Below are positions 3,540-11,823 of a DNA stretch of 45,423 nt, one piece after another. The number at the start of each line of letters is the position of its first letter. Positions within the stretch are counted from its first letter, which is position 1. The DNA comes from a virus (Duplodnaviria; Heunggongvirae; Uroviricota; Caudoviricetes): the IMG/VR virus record IMGVR_UViG_2563366980_000004; one strand, written 5' to 3'. A program made the translations under genes and the position numbers. The notes under the pieces are model-generated. The model did not search any database, was not told where the DNA came from, and saw only the letters and a list, made by a program, of their open reading frames with translations.

Positions 3540-4333
3540 TACTTCACCTCCTGCGGCGGTTCCGGTAGCGGCATCCAGTGGGTTACTTTCGATGCCGGTT
3601 CTTCCACATCGTCAGTAACTGCCCACCATTTGTTTCTCGACCAATCGTAATACCCTTCGAAGGTATCGCACTCAGTCCAGCCGTAAGACTTCCCCCAACA
3701 CCAAACATACTGTTTATCGTTCGGCATTCGCTCACTACAGCTTATCCAACCATCCGGAGTTACCGGAGAGTTGCCCGATAGCGCATTACGCAATCGCTCC
3801 AGCTTCACGTATTCCTGAACCCTGTTTCCGTCGCATGCCTGAAGCCATTGCGCAGCCTTTTGCGCATCAGTGTGAAAGGCACAAGTGCGACCGTCATCAA
3901 ATTGCATTTCGTAGAGGTCAGCAACTTGTTCAAACTGCGTGTGTTGTGACTTGTAAGTTTGGCTTACAGGTTCGGCACCATGAAGCATGGCGGCGCGGCA
4001 GGCGTTCCAGCCATCAACATAATCAAACGTATTGCTATCGTCTGGCTCGATTTCATCTGGCACTATCAGCACCGGCTGGACGGTGACATTGGCAAAGGCA
4101 GCACGCAACCCGGTTTTAATTTCTTCGATTTCATCAGAGCCAAGCGATGAGTCAGAAAGCGCATGGTGGAATGCGTAAGCCATGTCGTCGTTTACTGCCA
4201 CCGGCTCTGCTTCCAGTGATGCCAGCGCGATAAGCGCCAGCTCACGAATTTCACCGCCGTCTATATCGTCAATGTCATCGCGGCCAGAAATGTTAGCCAG
4301 CCATTGCAGTCGCTCTTTGGAAATAGTGATCAT
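3539..4333 (-). CDS. Phage protein with C-terminal DUF551 domain
   Basis: 264 aa; C-terminal W-rich region ending VTHWMPLPEPP is characteristic of DUF551; N-terminal domain is paralogous to ORF 4697..5053. Confidence 0.8.
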   Translation of the reverse strand: MITISKERLQWLANISGRDDIDDIDGGEIRELALIALASLEAEPVAVNDDMAYAFHHALSDSSLGSDEIEEIKTGLRAAFANVTVQPVLIVPDEIEPDDSNTFDYVDGWNACRAAMLHGAEPVSQTYKSQHTQFEQVADLYEMQFDDGRTCAFHTDAQKAAQWLQACDGNRVQEYVKLERLRNALSGNSPVTPDGWISCSERMPNDKQYVWCWGKSYGWTECDTFEGYYDWSRNKWWAVTDDVEEPASKVTHWMPLPEPPQEVK

Positions 4334-4695
4334 GCCGTAGCCCCTTCTTGATATTTTTCAAACCAGAACACAACCGGGTCAGATTTCATTTCAACCAATC
4401 CCATACGAACCAGCGCCTTGCCTTTCCCGGACGCAAGGAATTCACGACGACCATCACTGATAATTCGCCGATAGTCTTCCAGGCTACTGCAATGCTTGTG
4501 CAGATTGCATGGGTGGCATGCCGGAACCATGTTGGATATATCGTCACGCTCCTGGTGAAGCATATTTCCATCAAAACGAATGACCGGTTTTACATGATCT
4601 GCATGCCACTTTTCGCCAAGTTCGCAGCCGCAATAAGCGCAGCGACCACCGAACTTCATGCGCAGTTCTGCACGTTGTTTTTTCGTCAGTGCCAT
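4330..4695 (-). CDS. HNH endonuclease
   Basis: Start taken at MALTKKQ; motifs GGRCAYCGCEL...WHADHVKP...CHPCN are a classic HNH zinc-finger nuclease signature; overlaps flanking genes by a few nt. Confidence 0.8.
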   Translation of the reverse strand: MALTKKQRAELRMKFGGRCAYCGCELGEKWHADHVKPVIRFDGNMLHQERDDISNMVPACHPCNLHKHCSSLEDYRRIISDGRREFLASGKGKALVRMGLVEMKSDPVVFWFEKYQEGATA

Positions 4696-8044: not shown

Positions 8045-8737
8045 TTAATTGTGTCGCTTAAGGGTTTGTGACTGGCTGATTAAGACCTTTCCAAAGACCA
8101 TAAACCGGTGTTCATTTTCGCTGGTAATTCCCCATTCACGGTAAATCTGGTTATCAGAAATCACCAGTAGTTTGTCAGGTATCATTTGCAGTCGTTTGAC
8201 ATAAATTTTATCATCAAAACCAAATACATAGATACCATCTCCATCAAACTGATTGATACTGACATCAACGAAGATGAGATCTCCTGGCTCAATGGTTGGA
8301 CACATACTGTCCCCACGAACGTTGATAACTTTAATGTGATTGGCTGGCCGTCCGCCAAACATCGATACAGCATTATCAGTTCTGTATTCAATGGCATGAA
8401 TCACATCAATGACATCACCGCCCTGGATAAGGCCATTTCCCGCACTGGCACTGACATCCAGCATTTCAATACGGAATACATCCTTCACCTGCGCAACATC
8501 CTCACTAATACTGTTTTTACATACAGTATTACTTTTGAAGTCTGAGGTAAAGAGATCAGCAATATCAACACCTAAGCTCCTGGCAATATTACTCAGGGCT
8601 TGTTCAGTGAATTGTTTCTGCTTACCTGTTTCCAGGCGTGAGATATTCGCCGCATCCACTCCTATTGCTTCAGCGAGATCGGCGATTTTCATGTTCTTCG
8701 CCTGGCGAAGTTGTCTGACTCGGTTTCCTATGTTCAT
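8045..8737 (-). CDS. cI: CI-type prophage repressor (HTH_XRE + S24 LexA-like peptidase domain)
   Basis: 230 aa; N-terminal HTH (LRQAKNMKIADLAEAIGVDAANISRLETGK) and C-terminal S24 signature (RGDSMCPTIEPGDLIFVD...YVKRL); divergent from the cro-like gene. Confidence 0.9.
   Translation of the reverse strand: MNIGNRVRQLRQAKNMKIADLAEAIGVDAANISRLETGKQKQFTEQALSNIARSLGVDIADLFTSDFKSNTVCKNSISEDVAQVKDVFRIEMLDVSASAGNGLIQGGDVIDVIHAIEYRTDNAVSMFGGRPANHIKVINVRGDSMCPTIEPGDLIFVDVSINQFDGDGIYVFGFDDKIYVKRLQMIPDKLLVISDNQIYREWGITSENEHRFMVFGKVLISQSQTLKRHN
8509..8528. promoter_or_regulatory. Consensus-like SOS (LexA) box inside the cI coding sequence
   Basis: TACTGTTTTTACATACAGTA matches CTGT-N8-ACAG with TA flanks; in the HTH-peptidase linker region of cI. 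Confidence 0.35.
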
Positions 8738-8834
8738 GCGTTTATTACATTTCTTTATTGCGCGTTAAGCAAATCAACTTGCGCAAAATATTTGCGTGAA
8801 ATAATATGCTCATCACGCAATATGTGGAGGTCAT
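8738..8834. promoter_or_regulatory. OR/pRM-pR divergent promoter-operator region between cI and cro
   Basis: 97-bp AT-rich spacer containing TTGCGCGTTAAGCAA (TTGC-N7-GCAA) and the palindrome CGCAAAATATTTGCG; GGAGG RBS before the cro ATG. Confidence 0.6.
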
Positions 8835-9095
8835 ATGCAATCACCATTACGGAATGTGCGTAAGGCGCACGGATTTACTTTGCAGCATGTTGCTGCTGGC
8901 GTTCAGGTCAATCCAGCGACGCTGAGTCGTATTGAAAGACTGGAACAAATTCCATCTATCGATCTTGCAGAACGTCTGGCCAATTTTTTTAAGGGTGAAA
9001 TCAGCGAAATGCAGATTCTTTATCCGGCACGTTTTCAATCTAGCCAAAACCAGAATGGGTTTAAACCACAGGAACAGGAGGTAAGCCGTGGGTAA
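8835..9095 (+). CDS. cro: Cro-like HTH_XRE transcriptional regulator
   Basis: 86 aa; HTH (GFTLQHVAAGVQVNPATLSRIER); first gene of the rightward operon. Confidence 0.8.
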   Translation: MQSPLRNVRKAHGFTLQHVAAGVQVNPATLSRIERLEQIPSIDLAERLANFFKGEISEMQILYPARFQSSQNQNGFKPQEQEVSRG

Positions 9096-9639
9096 TCATC
9101 ACTGGAAAGTGGAAAAACAGCCTGAGTGGTACGTGAAAGCTGTCAGAAAAACTATCGCGGCGTTGCCGGGGGGTTACGCTGAAGCTGCTGAGTGGCTGGA
9201 TGTAACAGAGAACGCTTTATTCAACCGCCTTCGTGCAGATGGCGATCAGATTTTCCCGCTGGGATGGGCAATGATTTTACAGCGTGCTGCTGGCACTCAC
9301 TACATTGCGGATGCTGTCGCACAGTCTGCTGGTGGGGTGTTTGTATCGCTTCCTGAAATTGAGGAAGTAGAGAACGCAGATATAAACCAGCGCCTGCTGG
9401 AAGTCATCGAACAGATCGGGAGTTACTCAAAGCAGATTCGTTCGGCAATCGAAGATGGGGTAGTGGAGCCACACGAGCAGACAGCAATTAATGATGAATT
9501 GTATCTGTCAATTTCGAAGCTCCAGGAGCATGCGGCACTGGTCTACAAAATTTTCTGCGCTCCAGAAAAGAGTGACGCCCGCGAGTGTGCAGCTCCGGGC
9601 GTCGTGGCGTTTTGTGTCTGTGGAGAAACTAACGCATGA
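9088..9639 (+). CDS. CII-like / YdaT-like early regulatory protein
   Basis: 183 aa; GTG start with AGGAGG RBS; position after cro; weak resemblance to CII/YdaT-family proteins (functional call tentative). Confidence 0.6.
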   Translation: MGNHHWKVEKQPEWYVKAVRKTIAALPGGYAEAAEWLDVTENALFNRLRADGDQIFPLGWAMILQRAAGTHYIADAVAQSAGGVFVSLPEIEEVENADINQRLLEVIEQIGSYSKQIRSAIEDGVVEPHEQTAINDELYLSISKLQEHAALVYKIFCAPEKSDARECAAPGVVAFCVCGETNA

Positions 9640-10787
9640 ACAGTTTAACGGCAAATAACCGTTTGTCGCAACAGCTGGTGGTCAGTGTCGCTGCACACCT
9701 GTTGTTACGGCATGAATGCAGATTACCAAATCACCTGGCTGTAAGTAACCACAGAGAACTTTACCTGACTGTGGGGGGCGAGTTGTGCAGGAACTTAACC
9801 GCTGGTTTCGTGACGGAAGAGGACTTTATGTTCATGTTATTCGTTGGGAGCCAGAAACACAGCGCGTTATCTATCTTCGCAAAGACTACCCGCATGAGTG
9901 CTTTAGTCCTTTGTGGAAATTCAGGCGTGATTTTGTTGAGTGTGAAGGACCACCAGCACATTGATTCTGCCATTCCGGGACGTTACACTGTTCAGGCACC
10001 TTATAAAGCGGGTGCCGGGCGTGGAAACCCGGAATTCACCAAAGCGCACAACCGCGCTCTTGCGGTTTTTTTGTGTCATGAGCAGCATTACGCCCAAATT
10101 ATGGTGGGGCGTGCAGGGCCAACTTCGGTTGGGCCGGGTTCTTTGGTGACCGGTATTTCCACCCCTGTACGTCTCACCACCAATAAGGTCGTGGAAAGCC
10201 TTGGTGGTGAGTTATTAAAAATCACCAAAGAGGCTGCCATCATGGCTACGATCCCAACCCTCACTCAACCTGAAATTGCCATCGTTGATGGTCAGGCTGT
10301 TACTTCATCCCTGGCTGTTGCCAACTTCTTCTCCAAACGTCATGACGATGTACTGAAAAAGATCCGCACGCTTGAATGTTCCGCATCATTCACTGCCCGC
10401 AATTTTTCGGTGAGTGATTACACCGATTGCACAGGCCGCAAACTACCTTGCTATCAAATAACCCGCGACGGCTTTGCGTTTCTTGCTATGGGTTTCACGG
10501 GTAAACGTGCTGCCCAGTTCAAAGAGGCATACATCAATGCCTTTAACCAGATGGAGAAACAGCTTTCAAAGCCCGCTGTACCGAGCGACGTTGCACATAA
10601 CGCCAGCGTTCTCTGTTCCTACATTTCATCAATTCATCAGGTCTGGCTGCAGCAGCTTTATCCTATGTTGGCAAAAGCCGAATCTCCGCTGGCTGTTAGC
10701 TTATATGACTATATTAATGATGCTTCGGCGCTGGCCTGCCTCATAAATTTGTCGCTGAACCCTTCAGAGGTAAGGGGGCGCAAATGA
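9636..10787 (+). CDS. Rha-family phage regulatory protein (Rha domain from ATG 10242; status of the upstream 200 codons uncertain)
   Basis: C-terminal 182 aa (MATIPTLTQPEIAIVDGQAVTSSLAVANFFSKRHDDVLKKIR...) matches the Rha domain, with an AAGAGG RBS before 10242; the same frame is stop-free back to an ATGA overlap with the upstream gene but has odd composition and an internal terminator-like hairpin. Confidence 0.5.
   Translation: MNSLTANNRLSQQLVVSVAAHLLLRHECRLPNHLAVSNHRELYLTVGGELCRNLTAGFVTEEDFMFMLFVGSQKHSALSIFAKTTRMSALVLCGNSGVILLSVKDHQHIDSAIPGRYTVQAPYKAGAGRGNPEFTKAHNRALAVFLCHEQHYAQIMVGRAGPTSVGPGSLVTGISTPVRLTTNKVVESLGGELLKITKEAAIMATIPTLTQPEIAIVDGQAVTSSLAVANFFSKRHDDVLKKIRTLECSASFTARNFSVSDYTDCTGRKLPCYQITRDGFAFLAMGFTGKRAAQFKEAYINAFNQMEKQLSKPAVPSDVAHNASVLCSYISSIHQVWLQQLYPMLAKAESPLAVSLYDYINDASALACLINLSLNPSEVRGRK
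10050..10072 (+). terminator. Intrinsic terminator-like hairpin plus T-run (tR1-like)
   Basis: ACCGC-GCTCTT-GCGGT followed by TTTTTTT. Confidence 0.45.
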
Positions 10788-11008
10788 TCCGGAATATTTT
10801 CAAACGTTTTACCAATCAGACTTTCCGTTGTCCTCGTCCGGGTCAGTGGTACACCACGCCTGCAGGGCATGTTCTACGTGTTAGCCTGGTTGACCGTGAA
10901 TGTCAGAAGGTGATTTGTGAACCGCTGGGCCGTAATTACCGCGTCAGTATGCCGCTTATAGCCTTTCGCTCCGGAAAAAACATGAAGCATCTCGGAGGTG
11001 CAGCATGA
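10784..11008 (+). CDS. Hypothetical small phage protein
   Basis: 74 aa; ATGA start/stop overlaps with both neighbours suggest translational coupling. Confidence 0.5.
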   Translation: MIRNIFKRFTNQTFRCPRPGQWYTTPAGHVLRVSLVDRECQKVICEPLGRNYRVSMPLIAFRSGKNMKHLGGAA

Positions 11009-11823
11009 GTATGGAGCTGATGGTTAAAGCGATGAAAATTCGAGTGGGTAATCCATTGCGAAAACTGGTTCTGATCAAGCTGGCTGATAATGCCAGCGAT
11101 CAGGGTGAGTGCTGGCCCAGCTACCAGCATATTGCTGACCAGTGCGAGATTAGCAAACGTTCTGTGATGAATCATATTGCGGCCCTTTGTGAGTCCGGGC
11201 TGGTAAAAAAAGTCACCCGGAAAGGTGAAAAAGGTAACTCAAGTAATATCTATCTCCTTCATCTTGATGGTGCAGGAGATTCACTAGGGGGTAGTGCAAA
11301 TAATTCACTATCTGGTGCAGCAAATTCACCAGGTAGTGCAGGAGTTGCACCAGGGGGTAGTGCAGGAGATTCACCCAGAACCAGTCACTCTTTTGAACCA
11401 GTCAAAGAACCAGTCAATGAACCAATAGCTGTTGGTGCATCTGCTGATGAGTCTGTGCGAGTTCGTTCAAACCGACCGGAATACTCTCCGGAGTTTGAGC
11501 AGGCATGGCTGGCCTATCCCAAACGTGCTGGTGGCAATTCAAAATCTGCAGCCTTCAAAGCCTGGAAAGCCCGTTTGAATGAGGGGGTAAACCCCGAAAC
11601 CATGCTGGAAGGTGTGAAACGCTACGCGGGCTGGGTATCTGCGATGGGTAACAGCGGCACACAATTTGTGAAACAGGCTGTCACGTTCTTTGGTCCGGAT
11701 CGTCATTTCGAAGAATCCTGGGAAGTTCCTGCAGTATCTGCAGCCAGACGCGAGGACCCGTACTTCAAAGCCAGTTACGACAACGTGGACTACAGCCAGA
11801 TCCCGGCAGGATTCAGGGGGTGA
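11005..11823 (+). CDS. Replication initiation protein (O-like, N-terminal HTH; YfdO-like)
   Basis: 272 aa; N-terminal winged-helix-like region, central Gly/Ser/Ala-rich linker encoded by direct DNA repeats, C-terminal domain (EFEQAWLAYPKRAGGNSKSAAFKAWKARL). Confidence 0.7.
   Translation: MSMELMVKAMKIRVGNPLRKLVLIKLADNASDQGECWPSYQHIADQCEISKRSVMNHIAALCESGLVKKVTRKGEKGNSSNIYLLHLDGAGDSLGGSANNSLSGAANSPGSAGVAPGGSAGDSPRTSHSFEPVKEPVNEPIAVGASADESVRVRSNRPEYSPEFEQAWLAYPKRAGGNSKSAAFKAWKARLNEGVNPETMLEGVKRYAGWVSAMGNSGTQFVKQAVTFFGPDRHFEESWEVPAVSAARREDPYFKASYDNVDYSQIPAGFRG
11269..11388. repeat. Iteron-like direct repeats inside the O-like gene (putative ori)
   Basis: GTGCAGGAG(A/T)T, GGTAGTGCA and ATTCAC motifs each recur 3-4 times within about 120 bp. 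Confidence 0.4.

Follow-up and report, generated by a model that had tools for sequence, protein, structure and literature searches.

A probable P4/P1-type RNA immunity module with a Rha-family cargo gene downstream of the CII-like gene of an mEp460-like lambdoid prophage

Gene content of the locus

We analysed a window of 45,423 nt, i.e. the whole stretch of DNA in IMG/VR virus record IMGVR_UViG_2563366980_000004 (Caudoviricetes). Positions 9636-10241, directly 3' of a CII-like gene, carry four layered features: a DUF4222 gene, an IsrK/seqA-like small RNA (sRNA), a C4/CI-like antisense RNA and target boxes. The features of the locus, with the evidence for each, are as follows.

9088-9639, plus strand: CII-like gene (YmfL / Pfam Phage_CP76); ORF list and Pfam PF06892 (E 7.9e-15)
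9636-10787, plus strand: candidate eta-like long frame, 383 codons; open frame, unconstrained residues and a P4 eta-like layout
9785-9964, plus strand: DUF4222 small protein gene, 59 aa, GTG start; Pfam PF13973 (E 9.5e-14) and phrog_1343 (E 1e-36)
9961-9989, plus strand: putative internal promoter, counterpart of Gifsy-1 PisrK and P4 PLE; alignment with the Gifsy-1 and P4 hexamers, and conservation
9996-10072, plus strand: IsrK/seqA-like sRNA; Rfam RF01394 (67 bits, gathering score 50) and an intrinsic terminator
10097-10184, plus strand: C4/CI-like antisense RNA; Rfam RF01695 (83.6 bits, gathering score 45), full-length model match
10101-10103, plus strand: leader ATG within the C4 5' stem; placed, when counted from the IsrK start, like the first AUG of Gifsy-1 orf45 (PMC4825925)
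10191-10232, plus strand: downstream target region, counterpart of seqC; complementarity search and duplex energy
10242-10787, plus strand: Rha-family regulator gene, 181 aa; Pfam PF09669 (E 5e-31) and the PHROG Rha and anti-repressor families

The CII-like gene is named YmfL by PGAP in an identical E. coli record. Its TGA (9637-9639) overlaps the ATG of the long frame at 9636, and the frame stays open to 10787, in agreement with the first-pass annotation, which had described a frame open for 1.15 kb and coupled to the CII-like gene by an ATGA overlap. The long frame begins 5' of the putative internal promoter, overlaps the DUF4222 gene in another frame, crosses both RNA genes and joins the Rha gene in frame. 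The same annotation regarded only the 3' part, from ATG 10242 with a good ribosome-binding site, as Rha-like; Pfam indeed places the Rha domain solely at aa 223-308, and a Shine-Dalgarno sequence (GAGG) is present at 10230-10233. The GTG-initiated ORF of 9785-9964 that it had noted behind a GGGGGG motif was likewise found, with GGGGGG at 9773-9778 as its Shine-Dalgarno sequence and the quoted 59-aa sequence as its product. Relative to the long frame, this ORF is in frame +2; it matches Pfam PF13973 (DUF4222) with 51.1 bits (gathering score 27).

The Rha gene matches Pfam PF09669 (Phage_pRha) with 107.5 bits over 10242-10787 (gathering score 29.9). It shares the frame of the long ORF, whose 3' end it forms at the place taken by kil in P4, and is the only portion of that ORF with a confident AlphaFold2 structure. 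The composition of its first ∼45 nt (10245-10289) is 0.36 C and 0.13 G, compared with 0.23 and 0.27 for the window background; over 55 distinct sequences, the 5' end of the nested gene gave 0.36 C and 0.12 G. The Rha cargo is probably an antirepressor-type lytic regulator.

Predicted RNA elements and target boxes

Rfam gave two matches only in the 45-kb window, isrK and C4. For comparison we used about 100 related loci (122, 98, 87 or fewer per test), mostly enterobacterial and of common ancestry; pattern matches L024 and L065 were left out as G+C-rich false positives.

The putative internal promoter consists of a -35 hexamer TTGATT (9961-9966), a 17-nt spacer and a -10 hexamer TACACT (9984-9989), with a predicted RNA start at ∼9996. 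The hexamers agree with the consensus at 8 of 12 positions, which is below the threshold of a generic promoter scan, and such a scan of 9500-10400 found no site; they are kept across loci with differing upstream flanks. The IsrK-like sRNA is arranged as a 5' hairpin, a second hairpin whose loop contains a1 (GTGGAAA, 10021-10027), the single-stranded b1 (TCACCAAAG, 10036-10044) and the terminator. Hairpin 1 carries compensatory changes. RNAalifold run on a MAFFT alignment did not call the terminator stem, which is visible by eye and in a terminator scan.

A terminator-like hairpin with a T-run at about 10050-10072 was among the first-pass observations, and a tR1-like regulated terminator within coding sequence was one of the options offered there. 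The terminator scan found a stem at 10050-10067 followed by the T-run; the hairpin is real, but the model for it is the end of an IsrK/seqA-type sRNA, not lambda tR1. Lambda tR1 is a Rho-dependent terminator between cro and cII that is overridden by N at nut sites. A terminator of this type was ruled out: the hairpin and its T-run are of the intrinsic kind, they lie 3' of the CII-like gene and they coincide with the 3' end of an sRNA family member. From family match and structure, we concluded that the hairpin is the predicted intrinsic terminator of the IsrK/seqA-type sRNA.

In the C4-like RNA, the loop of hairpin 2 contains b' (GTTCTTTGGTGA, 10138-10149), and a' (UUUCCAC, ∼10156-10162) is in the single strand after hairpin 2. 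The three-helix structure carries compensatory changes in 17 of 26 pairs. Paired cells amounted to 96% vs 31-45% in slid controls, and the covariation score was 0.526 vs 0.08-0.10; none of 500 shuffles reached the observed values. The invariance of helix 3 is a product of the search pattern alone, in which this helix was fixed. The leader ATG at 10101 is in frame with Rha with no stop in between, and ATGG is found at the leader position in nearly all related loci. The leader frame enters the downstream gene in ∼80 of the 87 loci where a leader ATG was found; some loci had been mis-assigned by the automatic choice of gene start ("frame 1/2" classes), and their leader frames actually extend for 109-416 codons.

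The b' and a' segments of C4 are complementary to b1 and a1 within IsrK and, downstream, to b2 (TCACCAAAGAG, 10222-10232) and a2 (GTGGAAA, 10191-10197). The b2 box overlaps the Rha Shine-Dalgarno sequence. The predicted energy of the C4-a2/b2 duplex was -32.8 kcal/mol (1 of 1000 shuffles as low) and that of the a1/b1-a'/b' duplex was -36.2 kcal/mol; for the two duplexes, equally low values occurred in 1-2 of 1000 shuffles. Among 122 loci there were 44 distinct b' and 16 distinct a' sequences. When b' was compared with b2 of its own locus, a mean of 10.7 contiguous pairs was obtained, vs 6.5 with b2 of other loci, 0.8% of which reached the own-locus level. The boxes occupy fixed positions across loci, and b2 ends in GGAGG or AGAGG at its 3' side. 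We concluded, by complementarity, that C4 loops and boxes co-vary from locus to locus, each of the 44 loop variants having its predicted match in its own locus. These hypervariable loops and boxes (44 and 16 variants) probably set immunity specificity between co-resident prophages, which has a bearing on prophage induction and Stx-phage regulation.

Comparison with known immunity systems

The type of mechanism suggested by this layout is already known, with P4, P1 and Gifsy-1 as existing models. The closest arrangement is that of P4, in which a long frame over the immunity region is reported to be functional (PMC10111431). P4 and the window each have a long ORF that is coupled to the gene before it and begins 5' of an internal promoter (PLE in P4, putative in the window). 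Behind the promoter come, in order, a terminator-bearing element of the seqA/IsrK type, the CI/C4 RNA and a target box that covers the Shine-Dalgarno sequence of a short gene nested in frame. In P4 the ORF (8168-8812) opens with triple-Met starts where the upstream gene stops, includes the isrK and C4 matches, and has the 65-aa kil as its last part. The initial residues of Kil resemble those of the window Rha (MAT..T..), the two loci share the nested-start sequence ...GAGGCTGCCATCATGGCTAC..., and Pfam Ash matches the RNA segment in both. P4 differs in being a satellite; the element in the window is a lambdoid prophage, in whose early right operon the module follows a CII-like gene. Kil, the product of the nested P4 gene, has 65 aa, and the nested gene of the window encodes a 181-aa Rha-family protein. 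Additional sequence is present between seqA and CI of P4, and only in the window does the long frame also overlap a DUF4222 protein gene. By its order of elements, the arrangement is of the P4 eta/kil type, but with Rha-family cargo.

The immI region of P1/P7 (c4, icd, ant1/ant2) also has a C4-family RNA whose a'/b' match boxes on both sides of it (a1/b1 upstream, a2/b2 downstream); b2 covers a ribosome-binding site, and an antirepressor-type function is under control (putative in the window). P1 c4 DNA aligns to window positions 10060-10113. In P1/P7, icd lies between c4 and the antirepressor gene, whereas the window has no icd-like ORF, 57 nt separate C4 from ATG 10242, and b2 is placed right at the Rha Shine-Dalgarno sequence. 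P1/P7 carry Ant1/2 as cargo; the window has Rha, in an element that is integrated and lambdoid.

Among lambdoid examples, only the isrK-orf45-anrP locus of Salmonella Gifsy-1 has been dissected by experiment (Hershko-Shalev et al. 2016, PMC4825925). It has isrK and C4 (STnc1160) Rfam matches in equal order and spacing, a leader AUG at the equal place in the C4 5' stem, and promoter hexamers that align with those of the putative promoter in the window. However, Gifsy-1 has a separate 45-codon leader ORF that is out of frame with the antirepressor and ends in AUGA at anrP; it has no long in-frame (eta-like) ORF across the RNAs, and the locus is found downstream of the Q antiterminator gene. BLASTP of the window Rha against AnrP detected no similarity. 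Gifsy-1 was rejected as a direct homologue: AnrP is unlike Rha and the leader arrangement is different.

Operation purely in the Gifsy-1 mode is a rather doubtful reading of the window, although it is compatible with the best explanation. Short IsrK would act in trans and open the ribosome-binding site of leader ATG 10101, and this would lead to Rha translation; because the leader is in frame with Rha, the product in this mode would be a 228-aa isoform. The equally spaced isrK and C4 (STnc1160) matches, a leader ATG placed like the functional first AUG of orf45, and the a1/b1-a'/b' pairing (-36.2 kcal/mol), the equivalent of helix b-I in the model for Gifsy-1 (PMC4825925), are consistent with this mode. 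It leaves unexplained the openness of the frame upstream of ATG 10101, through IsrK and DUF4222, and the coupled start at 9636; moreover, in Gifsy-1 the locus is found behind the Q gene, with a separate leader and unrelated cargo.

We consider it likely that 9636-10241 is an RNA immunity module of the P4/P1 type and belongs to the early rightward operon of an mEp460-like lambdoid prophage. The complete explanation that we prefer (RNA switch, DUF4222 gene, eta-like long frame and Rha cargo) is also probable.

The E. coli K-12 e14 element shares with the window a CII-like gene, DUF4222 and an equivalent frame (ymfM, a truncated counterpart). In e14, isrK and C4 matches were absent even at E up to 1, and e14 therefore provides no model for the RNA part.

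Selection on the long reading frame

We compared codon changes in the two overlapping frames of 9785-9964. The DUF4222 frame had 246 synonymous vs 141 non-synonymous changes, and its variable columns were distributed 26/20/53 over the three codon positions; the long frame had 18 synonymous vs 362 non-synonymous changes. This pattern indicates purifying selection on the DUF4222 frame, and we concluded that DUF4222 is the selected frame within 9785-9964 and a real small gene, as foreseen in the first-pass option of a small overlapping gene. The other option given there, a decayed or fused gene, is contradicted by active maintenance of the open frame; among the best 120 protein matches, 116 have the full-length ORF. 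The annotation had also proposed that full-length homologues with conserved N-terminal residues would speak against its doubts about the N-terminal part. The open frame is conserved, but the residues are not: identity among full-length matches is 39-70% in the RNA-overlapping segment, the least conserved part, and 90-97% in the flanks.

Over the hypervariable RNA segment, no stop codon was present in the long frame, vs 25 and 50 expected from column shuffles of 19 and 39 unique sequences of the same spacing. The other two frames of the same sequences contained 52-146 polymorphic stops, matching their shuffles; owing to the shared ancestry of the loci, these stop-avoidance statistics lean on the other two frames as internal controls and not on independent lineages. 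The frame is open also 5' of ATG 10101, through IsrK and DUF4222. An in-frame ATG upstream of the position of the putative internal promoter was found in 89 of 98 loci, and ATGA overlaps with the stop of the upstream gene in 26 of 43 distinct start contexts; this start 5' of the promoter position is kept although the genes upstream of it are of many unrelated kinds. Where C4 or the a2-b2 interval varies in length (106 vs 109 nt), the variation is compensated and the frame is preserved. The encoded residues behave differently: at ∼90% nucleotide identity, amino-acid identity was 0.74 in the long frame, not above that of the other frames (0.80). AlphaFold2 gave pLDDT 20-32 for residues 1-220 and 62-85 for residues 221-310 (Rha domain), the low values being weak evidence on account of a shallow alignment (28 sequences).

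A functionless long frame appears unlikely; on this view it would be a by-product of gene calling, and the real elements of the locus would be DUF4222, the two RNAs and the 181-aa Rha alone. Its openness would have to come from the small number of stop triplets in G+C-rich structured RNA and from a single open ancestor, an origin that we regard as equally improbable. The unconstrained residues, the missing fold in residues 1-220, the operation of Gifsy-1 without such a frame and the common descent of the loci would all suit it. Against it stand the 52-146 polymorphic stops of the other frames next to 0 in the long frame (25-50 expected), the frame-preserving balance of length variants, the recurrence of the start 5' of the promoter behind many unrelated upstream genes, and the homologous frame of P4, reported to be functional (PMC10111431). 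The long ORF as a pure gene-caller artefact over two RNA genes was dropped, as the polymorphic-stop count and the column shuffles show stop exclusion.

The Ash profile bears on the opposite view. Pfam PF10554 (Phage_ASH) matches aa 117-213 (nt 9984-10274) with 57.8 bits (gathering score 26), a span that is exactly IsrK, C4, a2/b2 and the initial 11 Rha codons. A conventional two-domain protein, with N-terminal Ash joined to Rha and the Rfam matches secondary, is highly improbable: the profile score well above its cutoff, the identical architecture of hundreds of database proteins and the conserved openness of the frame would agree with it, but the Ash segment coincides with the RNA elements, is the least conserved part of the ORF, has pLDDT 20-32 and shows amino-acid identity no better than the off frames; compensatory changes in C4 pairs alter the long-frame residues, a selected DUF4222 gene overlaps the N-terminal part, and the founder ORF of Ash in P4 overlaps CI RNA, an RNA repressor in the literature (PMC10111431). 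The Ash segment thus was not found to be a folded, constrained domain.

We concluded that the 383-codon frame is neither a conventional two-domain protein nor an accident, and that the comparative pattern indicates selection on translation of the long frame, not on its product. By analogy with P4, the frame seems to be kept open for ribosome read-through across the RNA switch.

Proposed mechanism

We infer the promoter, C4 processing, Rho dependence and long-frame translation from P4, P1 and Gifsy-1. In the immune state, most transcripts from the putative internal promoter would end at the IsrK terminator. Read-through would yield C4, which would pair with a2/b2 and block Rha translation; the untranslated C-rich RNA would then be open to Rho termination. 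IsrK, through a1/b1, may titrate C4 or refold the read-through RNA. After loss of the main repressor, ribosomes on transcripts from the upstream early promoter would move on from the CII-like gene to the long frame, in which they would cross DUF4222, IsrK, C4 and a2/b2 in turn. Such translation could melt the RNA structures and avert termination. Expression of Rha, in long isoforms, and of the replication genes further downstream would then proceed irrespective of C4. That an eta-like "ribosome shuttle" frame, selected only for openness, is general in lambdoid prophages, where it would bypass C4 immunity and yield long Rha isoforms, we put forward only tentatively.

Implications for annotation

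Stop-codon exclusion provides a comparative signature of a frame selected for translation without selection on the encoded residues. The labels "Ash domain", "Rha family protein (383 aa)", "antirepressor" and "peptidase" hide a stack in which a small gene and two regulatory RNAs lie under a putative read-through frame, and the annotation ambiguity explained here recurs in prophages of E. coli, Shigella and Salmonella, Stx phages included. If the shuttle reading is true, this frame, and not a domain, would be what is recorded as "Ash domain" by Pfam, as "ash family protein" by PGAP and in 383-aa entries named "Rha family" or "peptidase", and the e14 SOS division inhibitor ascribed to K-12 ymfM could be the product of the overlapping DUF4222 gene.

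The DNA of mEp460 gp41, of Stx-phage 'antirepressor' ORFs and of RefSeq WP_001087313.1 is 98.8-100% identical to the window, and the 383-codon ORF is annotated in each. These records differ from our reading of the locus in listing one protein and neither the RNAs nor the DUF4222 gene. WP_001087313.1 is labelled 'Rha family phage regulatory protein'. A few other records annotate the C4 and isrK RNAs, or DUF4222 together with an 'ash family protein'.

Open frame and feature content

The stretch matches a prophage of E. coli FDAARGOS_536 at 100% identity and phage mEp460 at 98.8%, and of 5426 complete E. coli genomes 2266 contain parts of it. Its genes are ordered as in the early region of lambdoid phages, with an S24/XRE repressor gene on the minus strand followed by Cro-like and CII-like genes, the RNA module described here, and replication genes. 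The long frame noticed in the first-pass annotation is indeed open for 383 codons, from ATG 9636 to 10787, its ATG overlapping the TGA of the CII/CP76-family gene. The Rha-like part is confined to its 3' portion, as proposed there: the Pfam Rha domain covers residues 223-308 only, downstream of the nested ATG 10242, and GAGG precedes this ATG, in agreement with the good RBS noted. PGAP and the mEp460 annotation give a single 383-aa protein ("Rha family" or "transcriptional regulator"), other records carry DUF4222 plus an overlapping "ash family protein", and one Stx-phage record (H94) has both RNAs annotated. The ORF is named "peptidase" in several NCBI records.

Features of the module and the gene upstream
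9088-9639, + strand: CII/CP76-family gene; its TGA is overlapped by the ATG of the long frame
9785-9964, + strand: DUF4222 gene, 59 aa (Pfam E 9.5e-14; phrog_1343 E 1e-36)
9961-9989, + strand: putative internal promoter, TTGATT-17-TACACT, conserved, aligned with Gifsy-1 PisrK and P4 PLE
9996-10072, + strand: isrK RNA (Rfam, 67 bits; gathering score 50)
10021-10027 and 10036-10044, + strand: upstream boxes a1 and b1 in IsrK, by complementarity to a'/b'
10097-10184, + strand: C4 antisense RNA (Rfam, 83.6 bits; gathering score 45)
10138-10149 and about 10156-10162, + strand: C4 elements b' and a', by complementarity to the boxes
10191-10197 and 10222-10232, + strand: downstream boxes a2 and b2; b2 covers the Rha Shine-Dalgarno sequence

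Two RNAs with co-varying boxes

When the 45-kb window was scanned, isrK and C4 were the sole Rfam matches above gathering scores. A DNA pattern search with the C4 core gave 120 viral contigs. Among 65 distinct C4 sequences, compensatory changes were found in 17 of 26 pairs, and 96% of cells were paired versus 31-45% with slid partners, values reached by no shuffle; the invariance of helix 3 is a product of the search pattern, which fixed that helix. Hairpin 1 of IsrK showed compensatory changes too. The loop of C4 hairpin 2 (b') occurs in 44 variants and the single strand after it (a') in 16, and within each locus both are matched by complementary boxes whose positions are fixed, a1/b1 upstream in IsrK and a2/b2 downstream. 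The 3' end of b2 is GGAGG or AGAGG, and b2 forms a mean of 10.7 contiguous pairs with b' of its own locus versus 6.5 with those of foreign loci. The duplex energies in the window are -32.8 and -36.2 kcal/mol, equally low in only 1-2 of 1000 shuffles. We concluded from co-variation and complementarity that the RNAs are real and their antisense logic is intact.

A third a-box copy (GTGGAAAT, 9913-9920) lies inside the DUF4222 gene, with 8 nt complementary to a'; it is present in window-type loci only and could be a chance match. Some phages carry tandem isrK-C4 modules 650-870 nt apart with differing b'/a' specificities (loci L017, 4711/5370; L032, 9728/10384; L062, 7877/8530; L081, 7061/7930). 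Some database ORFs run through both tandem modules, one (P0092) with two Ash and two Rha stretches and another (P0003) with two Rha stretches.

The "Ash" stretch as an apparent translation of the RNA region

The Pfam Phage_ASH match covers residues 117-213 of the long frame, and the corresponding nt 9984-10274 coincide exactly with IsrK, C4, boxes a2/b2 and Rha codons 1-11. Over the C4 and a2/b2 region, at ~90% nucleotide identity, amino-acid identity was 0.74 in the long frame versus 0.80 in the other frames. In the 116 full-length database homologues among the best 120, the RNA segment is 39-70% identical and the flanks 90-97%. AlphaFold2 pLDDT was 20-32 for residues 1-220 versus 62-85 for the Rha domain, from a shallow alignment. 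By these comparisons and the predicted structure, the stretch is unlike a protein domain in its behaviour. In P4 too, the Pfam Ash match is an ORF that overlaps the CI RNA, the old "cI gene product". What PF10554 (Phage_ASH) and the PGAP "ash family protein" describe seems to be the IsrK-C4-a2/b2 RNA region conceptually translated, and the N-terminal 143 positions of phrog_821 apparently have the same origin. The Stx-phage literature still takes "Rha/Ash" as protein domains of unknown function (PMC8951638). Ash-type stretches lie at 9984-10274 in the window, 8330-8521 in P4 (L125) and 2385-2657 in the related locus L002.

DUF4222 and its K-12 counterpart

The small ORF of the first-pass annotation, from GTG 9785 to 9964 behind GGGGGG, encodes the 59 residues quoted for it, and the suggestion of a small overlapping gene was borne out by the DUF4222 match and by selection in that frame. 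Across 29 unique homologues, K-12 e14 among them, variable columns at DUF4222 codon positions 1, 2 and 3 numbered 26, 20 and 53, and codon changes were 246 synonymous versus 141 non-synonymous in the DUF4222 frame, compared with 18 versus 362 in the long frame. Because of this pattern we concluded that the protein under selection in 9785-9964 is DUF4222.

The K-12 e14 gene ymfM ("cell division inhibitor YmfM", 112 aa) is a truncated counterpart of the long frame: E. coli K-12 NC_000913.3 (L004) 4323-4681 corresponds to window 9636-9964, and ymfM starts with an ATGA overlap on ymfL, as the long frame does on its upstream gene. An unannotated 59-aa DUF4222 ORF (TTG 4502-4681) is mostly overlapped by ymfM and ends just past it, and by the substitution pattern it is the DUF4222 frame, rather than that of ymfM, which is under selection. 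In the ymfM preprint, a term search indicated that the whole ORF was cloned in pBAD24 and found no mention of frameshift or start-codon controls. Since the whole ORF was cloned and selection acts on the DUF4222 frame, the filamentation phenotype might be due to DUF4222 instead. A search of K-12 e14 for isrK and C4 found neither.

Why the long frame stays open

A leader ATG in the C4 5' stem (window 10101) is present in 87 of 93 loci, and its frame continues into the downstream gene in ~80 of these 87, although the downstream genes differ (64-416 codons). In 73 unique sequences the other two frames contain 172 and 273 stops, spread over 34-35 polymorphic positions, versus 18 in the long frame, all within seven divergent sequences. 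Two same-spacing classes (19 and 39 sequences) had no long-frame stops versus 25 and 50 expected by column shuffles, with none of 1000 shuffles as low; there were none upstream of ATG 10101 (IsrK and spacer) and none downstream. Stop counts in the other two frames of these classes agreed with their shuffles. An in-frame ATG that precedes the leader ATG by 140 nt or more, where the promoter lies in the window, was found in 89 of 98 loci, and of 43 distinct start contexts 26 overlap an upstream frame as ATGA. Inside DUF4222, 28 sequences held 2 long-frame stops versus 64 under a crude uniform synonymous resampling. In this comparison set, mostly enterobacterial and related by descent, the stop pattern argues that the frame is not accidental and that selection is on an open, translatable frame, not on its product.

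Comparison with known immunity systems

In P4 the isrK model matches seqA (8615-8692) and the C4 model matches CI (8420-8507). P4 ORF 8168-8812 contains three Met codons in a row at the upstream gene's stop and covers both RNAs; nested at its 3' end is a gene of 65 residues starting MATTLTPSHPEF, where the window's Rha starts MATIPTLTQPEI. The lengths of Kil (65 aa) and Eta (197-199 aa) agree with the P4 sequence. Transcripts from a constitutive promoter within eta end early via CI and seqA; Kil, a truncated Eta, is produced on read-through; full Eta is made from the upstream promoter only, coupled to the upstream gene, and its translation blocks termination (PMC10111431, summarising Forti et al. 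1999). Every testable feature of the P4 arrangement was found in the module.

P1/P7 c4 and P4 CI share the same architecture (a'/b' against a1/b1 and a2/b2), and leader ATG 10101 corresponds to the first AUG of Gifsy-1 orf45. The separate 45-codon leader and AnrP cargo of the Gifsy-1 operon are missing, as is the icd ORF that follows c4 and precedes the antirepressor gene in P1 immI, and both identities were rejected. Lambda tR1 lies between cro and cII and depends on Rho for termination. The terminator-like hairpin (10050-10067, then a T-run), also called by our terminator scan, is the 3' end of the isrK match, and the tR1-like reading was dropped as the defining tR1 features are absent. Because the P4 features are present and those of Gifsy-1, P1 immI and tR1 failed, we concluded that, by its sequence, this lambdoid prophage carries an immunity module of P4 type in which Rha is the cargo and a DUF4222 gene is overlapped in addition. 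That lambdoid prophages have IsrK-C4 systems was noted earlier (PMC3632133).

Proposed working of the module

The sequence comparisons establish the parts, their complementarity and co-variation, and the frame relations; an immune and an induced state are inferred from P4, P1 and Gifsy-1. In the immune state, the internal promoter, conserved across loci but weak, would produce IsrK, with C4 made on read-through; C4 would pair with a2/b2 and block Rha initiation, and C-rich, G-poor RNA at the nested-gene start would let Rho terminate. C is 0.36 and G 0.12 at this start in 55 distinct loci, where the background in the window is 0.23 and 0.27. Once the repressor is lost, ribosomes leaving the CII-like gene would start again at 9636 and translate across the module, making expression insensitive to C4. 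Rho dependence, C4 processing and the use of ATG 9636 and ATG 10101 are proposed steps. IsrK could add a further layer by acting in trans. In Gifsy-1 it does so by pairing with the C4 portion of the read-through transcript, which frees the ribosome-binding site of the leader (PMC4825925). By family resemblance, Rha may be a regulator or antirepressor.

The C-rich, G-poor stretch is the first ~45 nt of the nested gene (10245-10289). The MAT(I/V/T)PT... start that it encodes is shared even by nested genes whose products are otherwise unrelated (Rha-like, Kil-like or other). The stretch resembles a conserved site for Rho loading that belongs to the regulatory module, not the cargo.

Genes of the early right operon overlap at 9088-9095 (cro-like/CII-like), 9636-9639 (CII-like/long frame), 10784-10787 (Rha/74-aa ORF), 11005-11008 and 11820-11823, the chain continuing to a replication gene and then a PerC-like gene; ATGA was read at the three overlaps checked. 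The overlap pattern suggests translational coupling along the whole operon. The 74-aa ORF directly 3' of Rha (10784-11008) had no match in Pfam and a full-length match to phrog_1153 (function unknown), and a small ORF occupies the same place in loci with different cargo.
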